Assembly: GCF_000016745.1 (NCBI RefSeq)
Contig: NC_009483.1
Location: 1,980,001-2,012,000 of the forward strand
Length of the DNA: 32,000 bases
Direction of reading: 5' to 3'
DNA from: Geotalea uraniireducens Rf4
GTDB lineage: Bacteria > Desulfobacterota > Desulfuromonadia > Geobacterales > Geobacteraceae
Made by a program: the position numbers and the translations under genes. The notes under the pieces are model-generated. The model was not told where the DNA came from, searched no databases, and worked only from the letters and a program-made list of their open reading frames with translations. Shown one piece after another: positions 1 through 27,371 of this stretch. The first letter of the stretch is position 1; each line of letters starts with the position of its first letter.

Positions 1-644
1 TATCGGTGGCGCGTCTGGTCGGTGACCGGCAGGTGCCGATCCTTGGGGTAAATCTTGGCAGTCTCGGATTCCTGACCGAGATAACGCTTGGGGAGATGTA
101 CCCCGCGCTGGAGTGCTGCCTGCTGGGCGATTATGAGGTTTCCGAACGAATGATGCTGCGCGCTTCGATACTCCGCGACGATAAGGAGATCGAGGTGCAC
201 CAGGTATTGAACGACGTGGTGATAAACAAGGGGGCGATGGCGAGAATCGTCGATATGGAGACGGTGGTAGATGACCGCTATCTGACCACCTTCAAGGCCG
301 ACGGCCTGATAATTTCAACCCCTACCGGATCGACCGGCTACTCGCTTTCCGCAAACGGCCCCATTATCCACCCGGAACTGGATTGCCTGGTAATAACCCC
401 AATCTGTCCGCACACCCTCACCAACCGGCCGATCGTCGTTGCCAGCGATGCCCGGATCAGCATAACCATGCAGTCCCAGAACGAGGACATCTTTCTCACT
501 CTGGACGGACAGGTCGGCGTTAAATTGAAATACGGCGATACGATCCGCATCCGGCGGGCGGAGCACCGGACAAAGCTGGTCCGTTCCCGGAGCAAGGATT
601 ATTTCGAGGTGCTGCGGACCAAACTCAAGTGGGGAGAGCGGTAA
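1..644 (+). CDS. nadK: NAD(+) kinase, C-terminal part (5' end lies outside the window)
   Basis: ORF 6..644 is open to the window edge. GVNLGSLGFLTE and ADGLIISTPTGSTGYSLSANGPI are hallmark NAD kinase (PpnK) motifs. Confidence 0.9.
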   Translation, partial: SVARLVGDRQVPILGVNLGSLGFLTEITLGEMYPALECCLLGDYEVSERMMLRASILRDDKEIEVHQVLNDVVINKGAMARIVDMETVVDDRYLTTFKADGLIISTPTGSTGYSLSANGPIIHPELDCLVITPICPHTLTNRPIVVASDARISITMQSQNEDIFLTLDGQVGVKLKYGDTIRIRRAEHRTKLVRSRSKDYFEVLRTKLKWGER

Positions 645-650
645 AACCCA

Positions 651-722
651 GTTCTACGTTCTACGTTCTACGTTCTATGTTGAAACGTAGAACGTAGAAC
701 GTAGAACGTAGAACGTAGAACG
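651..722. repeat. Inverted arrays of tandem heptamers forming a ~28-30 bp hairpin/cruciform
   Basis: Read directly. (GTTCTAC)x3 plus GTTCTAT at 651-678, centre GTTGAAAC at 679-686, (GTAGAAC)x5 at 687-721. GTAGAAC is the reverse complement of GTTCTAC. The structure fills the spacer between the nadK stop (644) and the recN start (731). Confidence 0.95.
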
Positions 723-730
723 GATTTCAA

Positions 731-2392
731 ATGCTGACCGACCTTTCCATAAAAAATATCGCCATCATCGATACCCTTCATGTCTCCTTCCAGCCGGGGC
801 TCAACATCCTCACCGGCGAAACGGGGGCGGGAAAATCGATTATTATCGACGCGGTCAACCTGATTCTCGGCGGGCGGGCTTCCGCTGACCTGATCCGCAC
901 CGGCGCCGACGAAGGGGTGGTGGAGGCGATCTTCGATCTTTCCGCCCAGCCCGCGATCCTGACCGTGCTTGACGAGATGGGTGTCGAATGCGACGGCGAG
1001 CTCCTGGTAAAGCGGGTTGTCTCCCGCTCCGGCAAAAACCGCGTCTTCATCGGCGGAGGAATCTCCACCATCGCCATCCTGGCTGATCTCTCCCGGCGAT
1101 TGATCAATATCTACGGTCAGCATGAGGCCCAGACCCTGCTTCGAACCGAAAACCACCTGTTGCTTCTCGATGGCTACGGCGGCCTGTTGCAACTGCGCGA
1201 CGAGTATTCGGCCATCTTTGACGAATACCGGCGGGTCGCCGCTGAAATCAGGGGGCTGGAGGAAGGTGAGCGCGAAGCGGACCGCCGCCTGGATCTCCTC
1301 TCGTTTCAGTCCCATGAGATCGGCGCTGCGGCATTGGCAGCCGGCGAAGAGGAGGCGCTTCTGCAGGAGCGGCAACTTCTGAGCCATGCGGAAAAGCTCC
1401 TGCAGCACAGTCAGGAGGCTTTCACCGAACTTTACGGCGCGGACCATGCCGTCCTCGACCGGCTGGCCGAGGTGAAAAGACGGGTTGCTGAAGTGACCGC
1501 CGTTGACCCGTCAACAGGGAACCTTCTTGCTTCCATCGAAGCCGCCTCCATCCAACTGGAGGATGCAGCCCTTTCGCTCAGGGATTATGCGGCCAGGATA
1601 GAGGCCGATCCCCGACGCCTGCAGGTGGTGGAGGATCGACTGGAAATCATTCAGCGGCTGAAGAAAAAATATGCGCCGGCCGTTGAGGAGATCATCGCCT
1701 ACAAGGATGAGATCGACCGGGAAATAGAAGCGTTTCGCCGCCGAGAGGAGAGCCGGGACGGACTGGAAAAGCGACTCGCGGAACTGGAAGAGGCGCTGCG
1801 GGCCAAAGGGGAAGAGCTTTCCGGCAAAAGAAGCGAAGCGGCGCAGTTGCTCAAGGCGGCCATGGAGAAGGAGCTGTCCGAGCTGGCCATGAGGCATGCC
1901 TTGTTCGAGGTGACCTTTGAACGGCTTGTTGAGCCGAAAGCCTCCGGCCTGGAGCGCGTCGAGTTCCTCTTTTCTCCCAATCCGGGGGAGACGCCCAAGT
2001 CCCTGGCAAAGATCGCATCGGGCGGCGAGCTGTCCCGGCTGATGCTGGCATTGAAGCAGATCCACCCGGAAAGCGACGTGCCGACCCTGATATTCGATGA
2101 GGTGGACAGCGGTATTGGCGGGGCAACGTCGGCGCTGGTGGGAGAAAAACTGAAACGGGTCGCCCTCTGCCAGCAGGTCCTCTGCATCACCCATCTCCCC
2201 CAGGTGGCGGCCTATGCCGACCGGCACTTCAAGGTGGAGAAACAGGTCGAAGCCGGCCGTACCGTCACCTCTGCCATCCCGTTGGATGCTGATAAACGGG
2301 TGGCGGAGATGGCCAGGATGCTTGGTGGGGTGAAGATAACGGATACGACCCTGGAGCATGCCCGGGAGATGATTGAAGAAGCGCAAAGGTAG
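731..2392 (+). CDS. recN: DNA repair protein RecN (SMC-like ATPase)
   Basis: 553 aa. N-terminal Walker A LNILTGETGAGKSIIIDA, a long coiled-coil middle, a C-terminal signature ASGGELSRLMLALK and Walker B LIFDEVDSGIGG. Confidence 0.95.
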   Translation: MLTDLSIKNIAIIDTLHVSFQPGLNILTGETGAGKSIIIDAVNLILGGRASADLIRTGADEGVVEAIFDLSAQPAILTVLDEMGVECDGELLVKRVVSRSGKNRVFIGGGISTIAILADLSRRLINIYGQHEAQTLLRTENHLLLLDGYGGLLQLRDEYSAIFDEYRRVAAEIRGLEEGEREADRRLDLLSFQSHEIGAAALAAGEEEALLQERQLLSHAEKLLQHSQEAFTELYGADHAVLDRLAEVKRRVAEVTAVDPSTGNLLASIEAASIQLEDAALSLRDYAARIEADPRRLQVVEDRLEIIQRLKKKYAPAVEEIIAYKDEIDREIEAFRRREESRDGLEKRLAELEEALRAKGEELSGKRSEAAQLLKAAMEKELSELAMRHALFEVTFERLVEPKASGLERVEFLFSPNPGETPKSLAKIASGGELSRLMLALKQIHPESDVPTLIFDEVDSGIGGATSALVGEKLKRVALCQQVLCITHLPQVAAYADRHFKVEKQVEAGRTVTSAIPLDADKRVAEMARMLGGVKITDTTLEHAREMIEEAQR

Positions 2393-2961: not shown

Positions 2962-4299
2962 ATGGATTTTCAACAAATCGCAGGAAACATCGAACGACTC
3001 CTTAAATCCCGTGTTCCGGACGGTTACGAGATCATGCTCGGCGCTTCCCGGAACCTTTCCATCGAGGTCAAGGATCAGCAGGTGGACACCTTCAAGTGTT
3101 CCGAGCCGGTGGGGGTGAGTGTCCGGGTGCTGAAGGCGCACGGCATGGGCTTTTCCTTTTCCACCAGCATGGATGATGCCGACCTTGTCAGAATGATCGA
3201 CAATGCGGTTATCGGCGCCGAGACCCAGACCCCCGATGAATTCAACGGTTTTCCACCCCCCCAGTCGTACCTGGATGTGTCCGGGATGTTCGATGCAGGA
3301 CTGGCGGCAGTCGGCGAAGAGGAAAAGATCGGCCGCGCCCTTGAGCTGGAGCGTCTGACACTGGCGGAGGACAGCCGCGTAAAACGTGTGCGTAAGAGCA
3401 CCTATGGCGAGTCGAGCTATGAGGTCTTCATTCGCAATTCACTGGGAGTCGAGGGGAGTTACCGCGGCACGTCGGTTTCCAGCAGCATTTCTGCCGTGGC
3501 AGAGGAAAACGGCGATTCCCAGATGGGGTGGGATTTCGGTTTCAGCAACCGTTTCAGCGGCGTTGACGTTGCGCTGATCGCAAGAACCGCGGCAGTCAAG
3601 GCAACGGGCCTGCTCGGGGCGCGAAACATTCCTACCCTCAGGTGTCCGGCGCTGCTTGACAACTATGTGGCCACGGAAATTCTCGAAGTGCTGGCCTCCT
3701 CCTTTCTTGCCGAAAACGTCCAGAAAGGGAAGTCGCTCTTGGCGGGGAAAACGGGGGAGCGTCTCTTTGCCGGCTGCCTGCGGATTGTCGATGACGGGCT
3801 CCTCCCCGGCGGCATGGCGACCACCCCCTTTGACGGCGAGGGGGTGCCGATGCAACGCACCCTCCTTGTAGAAGGGGGCGTTTTGCAGGGGTTGCTATAC
3901 AACAGTTACTGCGCCCGCAAGGATGGGGTTGCCTCGACCGGCAATGCGACGCGGAGCGGGGTCAAGAGTCCGCCGCACATGGGGGTGAGCAACTTCTTCA
4001 TCGAGAACGGCCTCACCCCTTTTGCCGAACTGTTGAAAGGAATCGACCAGGGGGTGCTCGTGACCTCCGTGATGGGGATGCATACCGCCAATCCCATATC
4101 CGGCGATTTTTCCGTAGGGGCGGCGGGGTTTTTCATCGAGAACGGAGTCGTGGCATATCCCATAAAAGGCATTGCCATTGCCGGTAATATCCTCGACCTG
4201 TTCCGCGACGTGGACGGGATAGCGGACGATCTGCGCTTTTTCGGTGCGGTCGGTTCTCCCGCTTTAAGGATTGCGGCGCTGGATGTGAGCGGAGAATAA
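2962..4299 (+). CDS. pmbA: TldD/PmbA-family protein, PmbA (TldE)-like; no HExxxH motif seen
   Basis: ORF 2923..4299. The ATG at 2962 (MDFQQIAGN...) follows GAGG at 2953-2956. Family-typical C-terminus ...GMHTANPISGDFSVGAAGFFIENG... Confidence 0.8.
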   Translation: MDFQQIAGNIERLLKSRVPDGYEIMLGASRNLSIEVKDQQVDTFKCSEPVGVSVRVLKAHGMGFSFSTSMDDADLVRMIDNAVIGAETQTPDEFNGFPPPQSYLDVSGMFDAGLAAVGEEEKIGRALELERLTLAEDSRVKRVRKSTYGESSYEVFIRNSLGVEGSYRGTSVSSSISAVAEENGDSQMGWDFGFSNRFSGVDVALIARTAAVKATGLLGARNIPTLRCPALLDNYVATEILEVLASSFLAENVQKGKSLLAGKTGERLFAGCLRIVDDGLLPGGMATTPFDGEGVPMQRTLLVEGGVLQGLLYNSYCARKDGVASTGNATRSGVKSPPHMGVSNFFIENGLTPFAELLKGIDQGVLVTSVMGMHTANPISGDFSVGAAGFFIENGVVAYPIKGIAIAGNILDLFRDVDGIADDLRFFGAVGSPALRIAALDVSGE

Positions 4300-4707: not shown

Positions 4708-5685
4708 TCAGCGGAACAGTTTTTTGCTGAAGTGGCAGGCACATAGGTGTGCCGGCTCATGTTCCTCCAGCGGGGGGGGCTCGCTGTGACAGATCTGTTC
4801 TGCATAGGGGCAGCGGGTATGAAAGGGACAGCCGGCCGGAGGGTTGATCGGCGAGGGCAAATCCCCCTGCAGAATGATCCGTTGTTTCAATACATCGGGG
4901 GCAACGCGGGGGATAGCTGACAGCAGCGCTTCCGTGTAGGGGTGAAGGTATCGGTCCAGCACGTCTTCCCGTGACCCGGTCTCGACGATTTTTCCCAGGT
5001 ACATGATGGCGATCCGGTCACTCAGGTGACGGATTACCGACAGGTCATGGGTAATGAAAAGGAATGAAAGGCCGTATTCCTTTTTCAGCTCCATGAGCAG
5101 GTTGATTATCTGGGCTTGAATGGAGAGATCAAGGGCGGAAACAGGTTCGTCGGCAATGAGCAGTTGCGGCGACACGGCAAGTGCCCTCGCGATGCCGATC
5201 CTCTGCCGCTGTCCGCCGGAAAACTCATGGGGATAGCGGTAAAATTGTTCTTCCGACAGGCCGATCTTGGCCATGAGGTCGATGACTTTTTCCCGTCTCT
5301 GCGCTCCGCCAGCAAGGCCGTGTATGGCAAATGGTTCGCCGATGATTTCGCCGACCCGCATGCGTGGATTGAGGGACGAGAACGGGTCCTGAAAAATCAT
5401 CTGTACGTCTTTTCTGAATGCGTTGCGCTCTTCCTTGCCCATCTCGCCTAGCGCTCTGCCGTGGTAACTGATAGTGCCGGCGGAGGGGGGCGTAAGCCCC
5501 ATGAGGAGCTTGCCCACGGTTGACTTGCCGCAACCCGATTCGCCAGCCAGTCCCAGTGTCTCCCCACGTTTGATGTGCAGATCCAGGCCATCAACGGCTT
5601 TTAATAGCAGATTCCTGGCGAATGGGCCGGATTTGACCGGGAAATATTTACGCAGTGCGCTGGTTTCAATAAGGGCATCGTTCAT
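4708..5685 (-). CDS. Oligopeptide/dipeptide-type ABC transporter ATP-binding protein (OppF/DppF-like)
   Basis: ORF 4708..5754. I prefer the ATG at 5685 ([11 protein letters not shown]...), which overlaps the upstream gene's TGA as ATGA. Walker [10 protein letters not shown], signature FSGGQRQR, Walker B LLIADEP. The tail is Cys-rich (CPFHTRCPYAEQIC...CACH). Confidence 0.85.
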   Translation of the reverse strand: MNDALIETSALRKYFPVKSGPFARNLLLKAVDGLDLHIKRGETLGLAGESGCGKSTVGKLLMGLTPPSAGTISYHGRALGEMGKEERNAFRKDVQMIFQDPFSSLNPRMRVGEIIGEPFAIHGLAGGAQRREKVIDLMAKIGLSEEQFYRYPHEFSGGQRQRIGIARALAVSPQLLIADEPVSALDLSIQAQIINLLMELKKEYGLSFLFITHDLSVIRHLSDRIAIMYLGKIVETGSREDVLDRYLHPYTEALLSAIPRVAPDVLKQRIILQGDLPSPINPPAGCPFHTRCPYAEQICHSEPPPLEEHEPAHLCACHFSKKLFR

Positions 5686-6644
5686 CGGAATTTCCAGCAG
5701 CGGACCAGGTGCCCGCTGCCGACCTCTTTCATTTCCGGCTGACTCTCCTTGCATTCCCAGCTTTTAACCGGACATCGATCGCAAAAACCGCAGCCGGGAA
5801 GCTGTTCAAGAAGGTTGGGGACAAAGCCGGGAATGGTTTTCAGCGGTTCACCAGGTCTCGAATTTTGGGGAAGAGAGTCGAGCAGTCCCTCGGTGTAAGG
5901 GTGGAGCGGATTGGCGAACAGTTCACGGGTCGGGGCGTATTCCACGATCTTGCCCGCATACATGATGGCTGTTTTGTGTGACCGCTCCGCCACGACGCCC
6001 AGATCGTGGGTTATCAGGATCAGTCCCATCCTGTTTTCGCTCTTGAGATGGTCGATGAGTTCCAGTATCTGTGCCTGGATGGTTACGTCGAGGGCAGTTG
6101 TCGGTTCATCGGCGATCAACAGCTGCGGCCGGCAGGCAAGGGACATGGCTATCATCACTCGCTGCCGCATGCCGCCGCTCATCTGGTGCGGGTAATCGTC
6201 AAATCTTCTCTCGGGAGAGGCAATGCCGACCTGTCTGAGAATTTCGATCCCCGCTTCCCGCGCTTCGCCGCGTGAAAGCTTACGGTGGAGGCGGAGACCT
6301 TCACAAACCTGGTTGCCGATGGAAAGCACGGGGTTAAGGGAGGTCATCGGCTCCTGAAAAATCATTGAAATTCGGTCGCCTCGCACCCGGCGCATCTCTT
6401 CTTCGCTGAGACGGAGCAGATCCACGCCGCCGAATATGATTTCTCCACCGGTAATTTCTCCGGGAGAGGCAATCAGGCGCATTATCGAGTAGGCGGTGAC
6501 ACTTTTCCCGCAGCCTGATTCGCCGACGATGGCAAGGGTTTCCCCTTCGTCCAGGGAAAAGTCGATGCCGTTAACGGCTTTCAGCGTTCCTTGCGGAAGC
6601 CGGAAATGGGTGGTGAGGTTTTTGACTTGAAGCAGAGTTGACAA
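5682..6644 (-). CDS. Oligopeptide/dipeptide-type ABC transporter ATP-binding protein (OppD/DppD-like)
   Basis: 320 aa with a TTG start. Walker [10 protein letters not shown], signature MSGGMRQR, Walker [13 protein letters not shown]. The C-terminal Cys motif is [14 protein letters not shown]. Confidence 0.85.
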
Positions 6645-25169: not shown

Positions 25170-25219
25170 AAAAAAGCCGGGTCTCCGAATATCCATCTAG
25201 ATATTTCGGCGACCCGGCT
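25170..25219 (-). terminator. Intrinsic terminator (expression platform of the riboswitch; could also end htpG transcripts)
   Basis: The minus strand reads AGCCGGGUCGCCGAAAUAU-CUAGAUGG-AUAUUCGGAGACCCGGCU followed by UUUUUU. The stem is ~17 bp with one mismatch and one bulge. It sits 43 nt upstream of the ATG at 25127. Confidence 0.8.
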
Positions 25220-25290
25220 GTCTTCTTGAGACCCTGTAGGCTTTCCGTCCCATCCTCGCGGATGGTTTGGTATTATCGTTTATCTATCCG
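25201..25290 (-). promoter_or_regulatory. GEMM-I class cyclic-dinucleotide riboswitch aptamer (type 2, GYRA tetraloop; A at the G20-equivalent position)
   Basis: Minus-strand RNA 25290->25201 reads CGGAUAGAUAAACGAUAAUACCAAACCAUCCGCGAGGAUGGGACGGAAAGCCUACAGGGUCUCAAGAAGACAGCCGGGUCGCCGAAAUAU. As I recall it, V. cholerae Vc2 reads CACGCACAGGGCAAACCAUUCGAAAGAGUGGGACGCAAAGCC...AGCGGGGUUACCGA. Ours has CAAACC, the hairpin AUCC-GCGA-GGAU, GGGACGGAAAGCC, and AGCCGGGUCGCCGA. The closing pair covaries (Vc2 GC...GC, here CC...GG). Confidence 0.7.
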
Positions 25291-25433: not shown

Positions 25434-27371
25434 TTACTTTTCCGCGGCTTTCACCATCAGTTCGGCAACGAGCCTCGTGAAGCGGAGCGGGTCGGGGACC
25501 GGCGATCCTTCGGTCAAAAGAGCCTGGTCGTAAAGCAGTCCGCAGTAATCGGCCAGCCGCGGGTTCTCCTTATCTTTTTCAAATATACTGCTCAGGACCT
25601 GCATGAGCGGATGGTCGGGGTTCAGTTCCAATACCCGTTTGGACTCAGGCACATCCTGGTTCATTGCCTTGAGGATCTTTTCCATGTTCGCATTCAGCCC
25701 GTATTCATCGGCAACCAGGCAGCAGGCGCTGTCGGTCAGACGGCTGGAAAAGCGCACTTCCTTTACCTTGTCCTTTAACTGTTCCTTGACGAAGTCGAGT
25801 ACCCCCTGATACTGCTTTTTGGCCTCTTCCTGCTTCGCTTCCTTCTCTTTCTTCTCTTCCGCGCTGTCAAGCTCCAGGTCCCCCCGGTCGACCGCGTGCA
25901 GTTTCTTGCCGTCGTAGTCGGTCAGGCTCTGCACTACCCACTCATCGACCGGGTCGGTCATGTATAGCACCTCGAATCCCTTTTTCCTGAAGATTTCCAG
26001 ATGCGGCGAGTTTTCCAGGGCGGAACGGGAGGCTCCGGTGATGTAGTAGATTTCCTTCTGCGCCTCCGGCATCCGTGCCACGTACTCTTTCAGCGAGATG
26101 TAGTTTCCGGCCTCGGTTTTCGAGCTTTCAAAGAGGATCAGTTCCTGGAGCTTTTCCTTGTTGGCATGGTCGAAATGCACCCCTTCCTTGAGCACCGGGC
26201 CAAATTCCTTGTAAAACTTCAGGTAATCTTCCGGCGTTTTTTCTTTTGTTTCCACAAGTGTTGACAGGATCTTGCCGACCAGGTTTTTCTCGATCCGCTT
26301 GATCTGGATGTCTTCCTGGAGGATTTCGCGGGAAACGTTGAGCGGCAGGTCGCTGGAATCCACCACACCCTTCATGAAGCGGAGGTAATCGGGGAGAAGC
26401 GCTTCGCAGTTGTCGGTGATGAAGACACGCTTCACATAGAGGTGCACACCCTTTTTATGGTCGCGCATGAACAGGTCAAAGGGCTTGTGGCTCGGGATAT
26501 AGATGAGGGCCTTGAATTCGCTGGTCCCTTCCGCCGAATAGTGGATGGTGCGAAACGGTTTGTCATAATCGTGGGAGATGTGCTTGTAGAACTCCTCGTA
26601 TTCCTCTTCGCTGATTTCGCTTTTGGCCCTGGTCCAGATCGCCTTCATGGAGTTGAGGGTTTCTTCGGTGGTCTTCTCGATGGTGCCCCCCCCCTCAATG
26701 ACCTCGCCGTCAACGCCTTTGGCCGGTTCGTCCCGCGTCACGTCCATGACGACCGGGTACTGCACATAATCGGAATATTTCTTGATGATGCTGCGGATCT
26801 TCCACTCATCGAGATATTCCTTCATCTCATCCTTCAGGTGGAGGGTAATGTCGGTGCCGCGGGTCTCCTTCTCGCAATCCTCGATGGTATAGCTGCCGTC
26901 GCCGGTCGATTCCCAGCGGCAGGCGGCATTTTTGTCCCCCGCCTTGCGGGTGATCAGGGTGACCTTGTCGGCAACCATGAACGAGGCGTAGAAACCGACG
27001 CCGAACTGGCCGATCAACTCGGGATTGTTCTGAACGTTTTTATCTTTGAGGTTCTCCATGAAGGCGCGGGTGCCTGAACGGGCAATGGTGCCGATGTTCT
27101 CTTCCACCTCGACCACGTTCATACCGATGCCGTTGTCGCGGATGGTGAGGGTGCCGGCAGTTTTGTCCGGTATCAGTTTGATCTTCCAATCGGTATTGCC
27201 TTCGAGGATATCCATGTTGGAATGGGATTCGAATTTGACCTTATCAATGGCGTCGGAAGCGTTGGAAACAAGCTCGCGCAGGAAGATGTCCTTGTTGGAG
27301 TAGAGTGAGTGGATCACCAGGTCGAGAAGCTGCTGCACTTCGGTTTCAAATTTTTTGGTGCTTTTGGTCAT
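25434..27371 (-). CDS. htpG: Molecular chaperone HtpG (Hsp90)
   Basis: ORF 25434..27401. I prefer the ATG at 27371 ([41 protein letters not shown]), after AAAGGAG. GHKL ATPase motifs are DNGIGM and GQFGVGFYS. Confidence 0.95.

Follow-up and report, generated by a model that had tools for sequence, protein, structure and literature searches.

The nadK-recN spacer and its predicted hairpin

The sequence analyzed was a 32,000-nucleotide stretch of Geotalea uraniireducens Rf4 (NC_009483.1, positions 1,980,001 to 2,012,000, forward strand; hereafter the window), in which the spacer between nadK and recN is filled almost completely by two opposed tandem arrays of one heptamer. The 3' part of nadK, encoding NAD kinase, is an open reading frame at 6-644 (+) with its TAA stop codon at 642-644, and recN occupies 731-2392 (+) with an ATG at 731 and a product of 553 amino acids. 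These neighbors were identified from Pfam families and from the source names of homologues. The full-length nadK orthologue on metagenome contig L122 matched PF01513 and PF20143, the homologues of the second gene product are named RecN, and the RecN of Geotalea daltonii is 77% identical to that of the window.

Read on the plus strand, the spacer consists of a left flank AACCCA (645-650), a left arm of three GTTCTAC units (651-671) followed by GTTCTAT (672-678), a centre GTTGAAAC (679-686), a right arm of five GTAGAAC units (687-721) and a right flank GGATTTCAA (722-730). This layout had been given in a preliminary description of the DNA and was found to be exact to the base. The two arms and the centre together take up 71 of the 86 nt that separate the nadK stop at 644 from the recN ATG at 731, and Tandem Repeats Finder reported a period of 7 in both arms, with 4.4 copies (95% matches) at 651-681 and 5.6 copies (100% matches) at 684-722, the latter array taking its start from AAC 684-686 of the centre. 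A two-unit probe gave seven matches in the spacer and none elsewhere in the window, which holds this single GTTCTAC locus in its 32 kb; 0.08 matches were expected from shuffled sequences and none of these reached seven. The segments 651-681 and 691-721, on opposite strands, are 97% complementary and form the biggest inverted repeat of the window. The spacer is not an assembly artefact, because related versions are carried by independent metagenome contigs; a Logan assembly with an identical RecN breaks within the right arm, as is expected of such a repeat. No Rfam family matched the spacer of the window or those of six orthologous loci.

The element is an intergenic heptanucleotide long simple-sequence repeat in the inverted-pair form. 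We assign it to this class because it contains at least three head-to-tail 7-nt copies, above chance, because it lies between genes, and because its unit number and sequence vary between close relatives.

RNA folding of 642-733 predicted a 31-bp stem in which 651-681 pairs with 691-721, lengthened by pairing of CC 648-649 in the left flank with GG 722-723 in the right. The predicted energy was -53.8 kcal/mol (z = -12.7), which none of 200 shuffled sequences equaled, and folding as DNA gave -33.9 kcal/mol (z = -10.3). In the favored register GTT 679-681 of the centre belongs to the stem and 682-690 forms the loop, bearing out the earlier suggestion that a microsatellite makes up a hairpin here. 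As the arms differ in unit number, there is a second register shifted by 7 nt, which lies 1 kcal/mol higher and accounts for approximately 22% of the sampled ensemble. The stem ends only 9 nt before the recN ATG, and the sole triplet of the spacer resembling a Shine-Dalgarno sequence, GGA 722-724, has its GG paired in more than 95% of the ensemble. The lack of a clear Shine-Dalgarno sequence, remarked on previously, was correct as an observation, GGA being all that is present; it is not linked to the element, since recN in this clade typically has a weak Shine-Dalgarno sequence whether the arrays are there or not. Binding of the UAG-N4 repeats by a HutP- or TRAP-like protein was considered and rejected, as the UAGs are buried in the duplex and sister arrays use units devoid of UAG.

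The two genes belong to a co-directional string nadK-recN-acetyltransferase-pmbA with short spacers, and among 13 loci from relatives all those that extend far enough show this gene order. In Geobacter metallireducens the nadK stop overlaps the recN start (TAGTG, L581 1499-1503), and we conclude from this overlap that the two genes are translationally coupled there. In this family nadK and recN behave as an operon pair. A simple consensus scan of the spacer found nothing resembling a promoter or a terminator, and for this reason recN mRNA would have to be transcribed through the element. These observations bear on the proposal that the hairpin is a transcription terminator or insulator which ends the nadK transcript and isolates recN. 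Such a role would suit a very stable predicted hairpin that starts 7 nt after the stop codon, and arrays of this kind at other loci were found more often between convergent than divergent genes (21 versus 9, by crude gene calls). However, as had already been noted, no U-tract follows the stem, which runs directly into GGATTTCAA; the genes are coupled in G. metallireducens; and termination at the stem would silence recN, because 9 nt between stem and ATG leave no room for a promoter. We regard a terminator as very improbable.

The spacer among relatives

Two metagenome contigs, L122 and L123, match the window at 98.7% identity across 12.4 kb, and their recN differs from that of the window at a proportion of 0.027 of 4-fold degenerate sites. 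In these close relatives the spacer has been reshaped: the left arm reads GTTCTAA, GTTCTAG, the centre is a different one of 16 nt, and the right arm reads TGCGAAC, TTTGAAC and two GTAGAAC. A third version, on contig L124 (86% RecN identity), has the same flanks as the window, AACCCA included, and nearly the same centre, with four units in each arm (GTTCTAA, two GTTCTAC and GTTCTAT, then GTAGAAC, ATGGAAC and two ATAGAAC). Its predicted fold of -33.5 kcal/mol contains a 1x1 mismatch at each seventh position. All three alleles keep hairpin potential, with z values from -3.9 to -12.7.

The expectation that the element varies in length between strains was therefore confirmed, with 4/5 units in the window, 2/~4 degenerate units in the 98.7%-identical genome and 4/4 units in L124. 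It does not follow that the element is a contingency locus at which gain or loss of units switches recN expression within a population, and we consider phase variation of this kind scarcely credible. Unit numbers do differ between the arms and between strains, and the unequal arms provide two nearly isoenergetic registers 7 nt apart. On the other side, four or five units are generally short for high slippage rates, the architecture of 4/4-5 units has been stable across 32% neutral divergence, and recN in a free-living sediment lineage is no typical contingency gene. We also rejected a miniature inverted-repeat transposable element, as the flanks AACCCA and GGATTT form no target-site duplication and the alleles differ by whole units and not in whether a block is there.

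Compared with L124, the spacer of the window shows six substitutions in 79 aligned nt and one 7-nt indel, whereas the 4-fold degenerate sites of recN differ at 0.319 (80/251), so that the spacer has changed more slowly (P = 2e-7). The bases outside the repeat units showed a single difference in 23 (P = 0.0017). The spacer, with its non-repeat flanks and loop, has thus diverged approximately four-fold less than the 4-fold degenerate sites. From this slow divergence it follows that the element is old, and that it has been either constrained or homogenized by concerted evolution.

Of the five arm substitutions that separate the window from L124, four lie at the unit junction, in the CG of ...TAC|GTT..., and they include C-to-T and G-to-A changes. 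Variant units of both kinds are seen, GTTCTAT at 672-678 of the window and ATAGAAC within 184-248 of L124. One might speculate that such changes are due to deamination of cytosine where the CG is methylated or single-stranded.

Further from the window the same spacer holds other sequences. Contigs L125-127 (84% RecN identity) and G. daltonii have a different long hairpin of approximately 125-150 nt, and the folded spacers gave -52.8 and -54.6 kcal/mol. This second hairpin, TTGCGTTGAAAAACGCCC...GGGCATTTTTGAACGCAAA with an inner palindrome GGCGTACCGATGTACGCC, is found at L249 1354-1475 (G. daltonii), L125 2827-2950 and L251 1424-1480, the last being a truncated version of the G. daltonii type; in L252 nothing obvious was seen. 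The inner palindrome is similar to the GRCGTAGCGCTGCTACGCC family reported in G. metallireducens. The second hairpin matched no Rfam family, and the window has no copy of it. In G. pickeringii the nadK-recN spacer is 58 nt long with a 14-bp hairpin and in Geobacter sp. DSM 9736 it is 45 nt long, while the overlapping codons of G. metallireducens rule out that a hairpin is obligatory between the two genes. A hairpin at this position is frequent in the family and is not required. A search of metagenomes with a 23-mer from the start of recN returned only a contig already known and no further alleles.

Heptamer arrays at other loci and in described repeat classes

We scanned one genome per prokaryotic species for exact (GTTCTAC)x3 and obtained at least 120 loci, compared with approximately 0.3 chance occurrences of a 21-mer in 596 Gb by our own arithmetic. 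Approximately 29 of the 120 matches listed were from Geobacterales, several from one genome, the carriers being Geomonas oryzae, G. azotofigens, G. edaphica, G. silvestris, G. paludis, G. anaerohicana, Geobacter argillaceus and metagenome-assembled genomes (MAGs). A further 26 or so were from Acidobacteriota, and the remaining matches listed came from Syntrophorhabdaceae, Bacillota, Patescibacteria, Planctomycetota, Chloroflexota, Rhodothermales and ANME-1 archaea. Several GTTCTAC loci per genome were common, and the longest arrays among the matches listed had 18 units. The preliminary description had named generic dispersal as a finding that would count against the element, and by that yardstick the unit is a generic dispersed repeat, present across many phyla beside unrelated genes.

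Many of these arrays occur as inverted pairs. An inverted partner lay within 160 nt of 37 of 125 GTTCTAC arrays (approximately 30%) as against 10 of 2242 random windows, and the order GTTCTAC...GTAGAAC was favored 28 to 9 (P = 0.003). At related loci one arm was expanded without the other, for example in L030 and L001. Over all loci examined, phage contigs included, we counted 103 inverted pairs of heptamer arrays with assorted units. Period 7 was the dominant period in the 8-kb loci around the GTTCTAC arrays (372 of 1057 tandem arrays), and 169 period-7 arrays with many different units lay more than 300 nt from the seed array. By crude gene calls the arrays were mostly intergenic, with 55 between co-directional, 21 between convergent and 9 between divergent genes. 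Unpaired arrays were biased toward the sense strand when counted singly (41 versus 22, P = 0.02) and less clearly so when counted by locus (28 versus 17, P = 0.14), again by crude gene calls, and we regard this bias as unproven.

Some further observations were made at individual loci. In the Geobacterales loci L084 (~3478-3500), L101 (~2500-2527) and L106 (1-24) GTTCTAC arrays adjoin versions of one short sequence, GTGTTGAGTGCCACGACATCGTGG in L084 and ATGTTGAGTACCACGACATCGT in L101, which in L106 lies within the palindrome GTGCCACGACATCGTGGCAC; this suggests that some GTTCTAC arrays belong to a larger composite repeat. The IMG/VR viral contigs L129, L132, L210, L227, L236 and L245 each carry several inverted heptamer-array pairs, with units such as TTGGAAA/AATTTCT, GTTCAAG/AACATTG and CAGTGAT/TCACTGA, and at least two GAAC-type pairs in viral contigs sit just upstream of a ribosome-binding site. 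In L081 (1-8000; Bacillota MAG044, JBFLWY010000002.1) sense-oriented (NNNGAAC)n arrays occupy nearly every spacer of a plus-strand gene string composed of polysaccharide-synthesis genes followed by ParE and three PIN toxin genes. In several of these spacers there is, in addition, a GGACC...GGTCC hairpin, which is conserved, together with another array whose units are of the CTTCGAAC type, and the layout recalls a gene-cassette array.

Neighboring NNNGAAC units hinted at a special GAAC core shared across phyla. The control cores CAAG and GACA were about equally common at period 7 (in viral contigs, GAAC at least 119 arrays, CAAG at least 120 and GACA 99). As the loci had, moreover, been selected on GTTCTAC, we do not claim a special GAAC core.

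The dispersal of the unit is also relevant to the idea that the arrays are a protein-binding site in DNA, an operator through which LexA, a ribbon-helix-helix-type repressor or a nucleoid protein would control recN. GTTC and GAAC are half-sites of several LexA boxes, and the omega repressor of plasmid pSM19035 binds contiguous heptads in both orientations. For the paired repeats found in G. metallireducens, binding of IHF or HU has been proposed (Aklujkar et al. 2009). In the units flanking perfect arrays GAAC was somewhat better conserved than GTA (0.72-0.84 versus 0.62-0.66). Against this, the same arrays adjoin unrelated genes at the 120 or more loci, many different heptamer units occur within single genomes, and the GAAC core is not demonstrably special. 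Nor do the units of the GTTC/GAAC array, one of the roles first suggested, have the spacing of a LexA box: GTTC-N3-GTTC fits none of the three boxes considered (GAAC-N4-GTTC, GTTC-N7-GTTC and the Geobacter box GGTTN2CN4GN3ACC). The only near-match of the spacer to the Geobacter box is GGATTTCAAATGCTGACC at 722-739 (+), which has one mismatch and overlaps the recN start codon; by our own reading of the spacers it is kept in L124 and lost in L122 and G. daltonii, and such near-matches are at chance frequency in the window (10 versus 7.2 expected). A protein-binding array is in our opinion very unlikely. Elsewhere in the window a perfect match to the same Geobacter box, GGTTTTCAGCGGTTCACC at 5835-5852, was rejected as a LexA operator because it lies inside a minus-strand open reading frame (5682-6644) for an ABC-transporter ATPase, identified by synteny with L122, and this match is probably due to chance.

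We compared the element with repeats that have been published, since the preliminary description knew of no described element of this form. Heptanucleotide intergenic repeats, inverted pairs among them, are in fact on record for G. bemidjiensis, G. metallireducens, Xanthomonas, Nostoc and Beggiatoaceae. According to the summaries given by MacGregor and Rehm et al., Mrazek et al. (2007) found that heptanucleotides are, in many prokaryotes, the commonest of the long simple-sequence repeats with units of 5-11 nt, and put forward slippage of the polymerase as their origin. For G. bemidjiensis, Table S6 of Aklujkar et al. (2010) lists [CAATTGA]n (R7001-7056), [AACGTTG]nAAC (R7058-7102) and [GGGGCTR]n, nearly all annotated as 3' of one gene and 5' of another and often with two to four arrays per spacer. 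For G. metallireducens, Aklujkar et al. (2009) described paired tandem 7-9-mers on opposite strands at variable distance as possible IHF/HU sites. These repeats are from the same family of organisms and, like ours, are head-to-tail 7-nt units in spacers of co-directional genes, often several arrays to a spacer, and the G. bemidjiensis unit AACGTTG is one base apart from AACGTAG of the window element. They differ in that the Geobacteraceae lists lack GTTCTAC/GTAGAAC, and in that the arms in the window abut as a near-perfect 31-bp hairpin filling the spacer. The inverted-pair form is thus already catalogued as a class in Geobacter relatives and other bacteria, and it is the GTTCTAC unit that is missing from the Geobacteraceae lists.

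Rehm et al. (2015) found 70-75 cases per Xanthomonas genome in which two GGGAATC arrays converge on opposite strands, with array length varying between species and the single or paired type preserved. The Xanthomonas repeats and those of Mrazek et al. share with the window element two close intergenic arrays of one heptamer on opposite strands, variable length and a proposed origin by slippage. The GGGAATC units, however, are G-rich and quadruplex-forming, and because the window unit has no G run we take the element as an analogue and not a member of that family, with a duplex hairpin as its only expected structure. MacGregor (2015) described TAACTGA arrays just upstream of start codons without ribosome-binding sites in Beggiatoaceae, cyanobacteria and scattered phyla, and Pradhan et al. 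(bioRxiv 2022) described Nostoc heptamer arrays that abut the start codons of recF and recO and whose deletion had modest reporter effects. Both resemble the window element in ending a few nt from a start codon that lacks a good Shine-Dalgarno sequence and in being scattered across phyla, and the Nostoc arrays lie upstream of DNA-repair genes, as the window element lies before recN. In contrast, they are mostly single, direct arrays proposed as single-stranded binding sites, whereas the array in the window is duplexed with its inverted partner.

Possible roles of the hairpin in the nadK-recN transcript

The explanation we favor, at a rough probability of 0.45, is that the element is a palindromic microsatellite born by slippage within the nadK-recN operon transcript, whose hairpin would modulate recN expression; as part of the same proposal the element would be modulatory and dispensable and not a dedicated recN switch. 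Each arm would grow, shrink and homogenize in 7-nt steps through slipped-strand mispairing, the accepted route for such repeats, and the complementarity of the arms may be kept by selection on the fold, by template switching in the palindrome, or by both, template switching being our own suggestion. With recN presumably transcribed through the element, the transcript is predicted to fold into the hairpin of 31 bp and -54 kcal/mol that ends 9 nt before the recN AUG and pairs the GG of GGA. From the established properties of the enzymes, a 31-bp duplex, which exceeds the stem length of about 20 bp usual for RNase III processing hairpins, would be a candidate substrate for RNase III and a candidate barrier to 3' exonucleases, and it could hinder loading of the 30S subunit at recN. 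The expected net effect is that recN would be uncoupled from nadK and its translation dampened, to an extent that would depend on how many units there are and how perfect they are, both of which vary between strains.

Stable stem-loops in polycistronic mRNA are familiar from repetitive extragenic palindromic (REP) sequences and the bacterial interspersed mosaic elements (BIMEs) that contain them and from intercistronic RNase III hairpins, such as the E. coli malE-malF REP and the R sites of phage T7, and they can protect the upstream message or be cleaved to uncouple cistrons. The likeness of the window element to these systems would lie in its proposed working only. REPs are 35-40-nt imperfect palindromes linked to RAYT transposases, whereas the stem in the window is a tandem repeat and does not follow a REP consensus.

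Several findings weigh against this explanation. Every RNA-level step of it is, in this organism, one that we infer. The L122/L123 allele, from the same species, folds at only -21.4 kcal/mol, from which it follows that a strong stem is not required, and more distant relatives have no spacer, or unrelated spacers with another hairpin or no strong predicted fold. When the two consensus units alone were compared between the window and L124, one difference in 14 sites remained (P = 0.035), and concerted evolution, in place of selection, could explain why the arms diverged slowly. Among 54 inverted heptamer pairs between co-directional genes the sense strand folded better in 26 and the antisense strand in 28; selection on the RNA strand was rejected for these pairs, since the lack of asymmetry between G-U and A-C leaves no mark of selection at the RNA level. 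Finally, the neighbors of the arrays include tandem, convergent and divergent genes, by the crude gene calls mentioned above.

The main alternative is a neutral by-product, in which slippage with fold-back or template switching takes place in a permissive spacer inside an operon, the element has no function, and any effects on nadK and recN are incidental and tolerated. Such an origin is quite possible, although we are inclined to doubt it. It would account for the abundance of period-7 arrays of arbitrary and varied units and for their many inverted pairs, for control cores as common as GAAC, for a fold stability without strand asymmetry, for the restructuring of the element within one species to the weak L122/L123 allele, and for its absence from most relatives. 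It accounts less well for a spacer which, non-repeat flanks and loop included, has changed approximately four times more slowly than 4-fold sites, or for the hairpin potential retained in all three alleles; and 86 nt have persisted despite the general tendency of bacteria to delete useless DNA.

Taken alone the locus is one more intergenic heptamer repeat and changes little. It adds that the GTTCTAC unit recurs in Geobacterales and Acidobacteriota, that approximately a third of GTTCTAC arrays come as self-complementary pairs, and that one such pair has persisted in an operon spacer with change well below neutral and was nevertheless remodeled within a species. We think it unlikely, on present comparisons, that opposed heptamer-array hairpins are a widespread and under-described intergenic class of bacteria, archaea and phages with a common cause, and that the constraint at this locus reflects a real function in the operon mRNA. 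A common cause, if there is one, may be a specific route of replication or repair by which a slipped array becomes its own inverted copy, or a shared factor that recognizes the structure. Heptamer repeats have been known since 2007 without an assigned function, and the natural allelic series in cultivable relatives (Geomonas, G. bemidjiensis) would suit a test of action in mRNA.

Away from the spacer, the window contains a c-di-GMP-I riboswitch aptamer at 25205-25281 on the minus strand (Rfam RF01051, scoring 50.7 bits where the gathering threshold is 35). One arm of an inverted repeat (25170-25189/25205-25224) falls within this aptamer, and short tandem repeats are found at 25758-25860.

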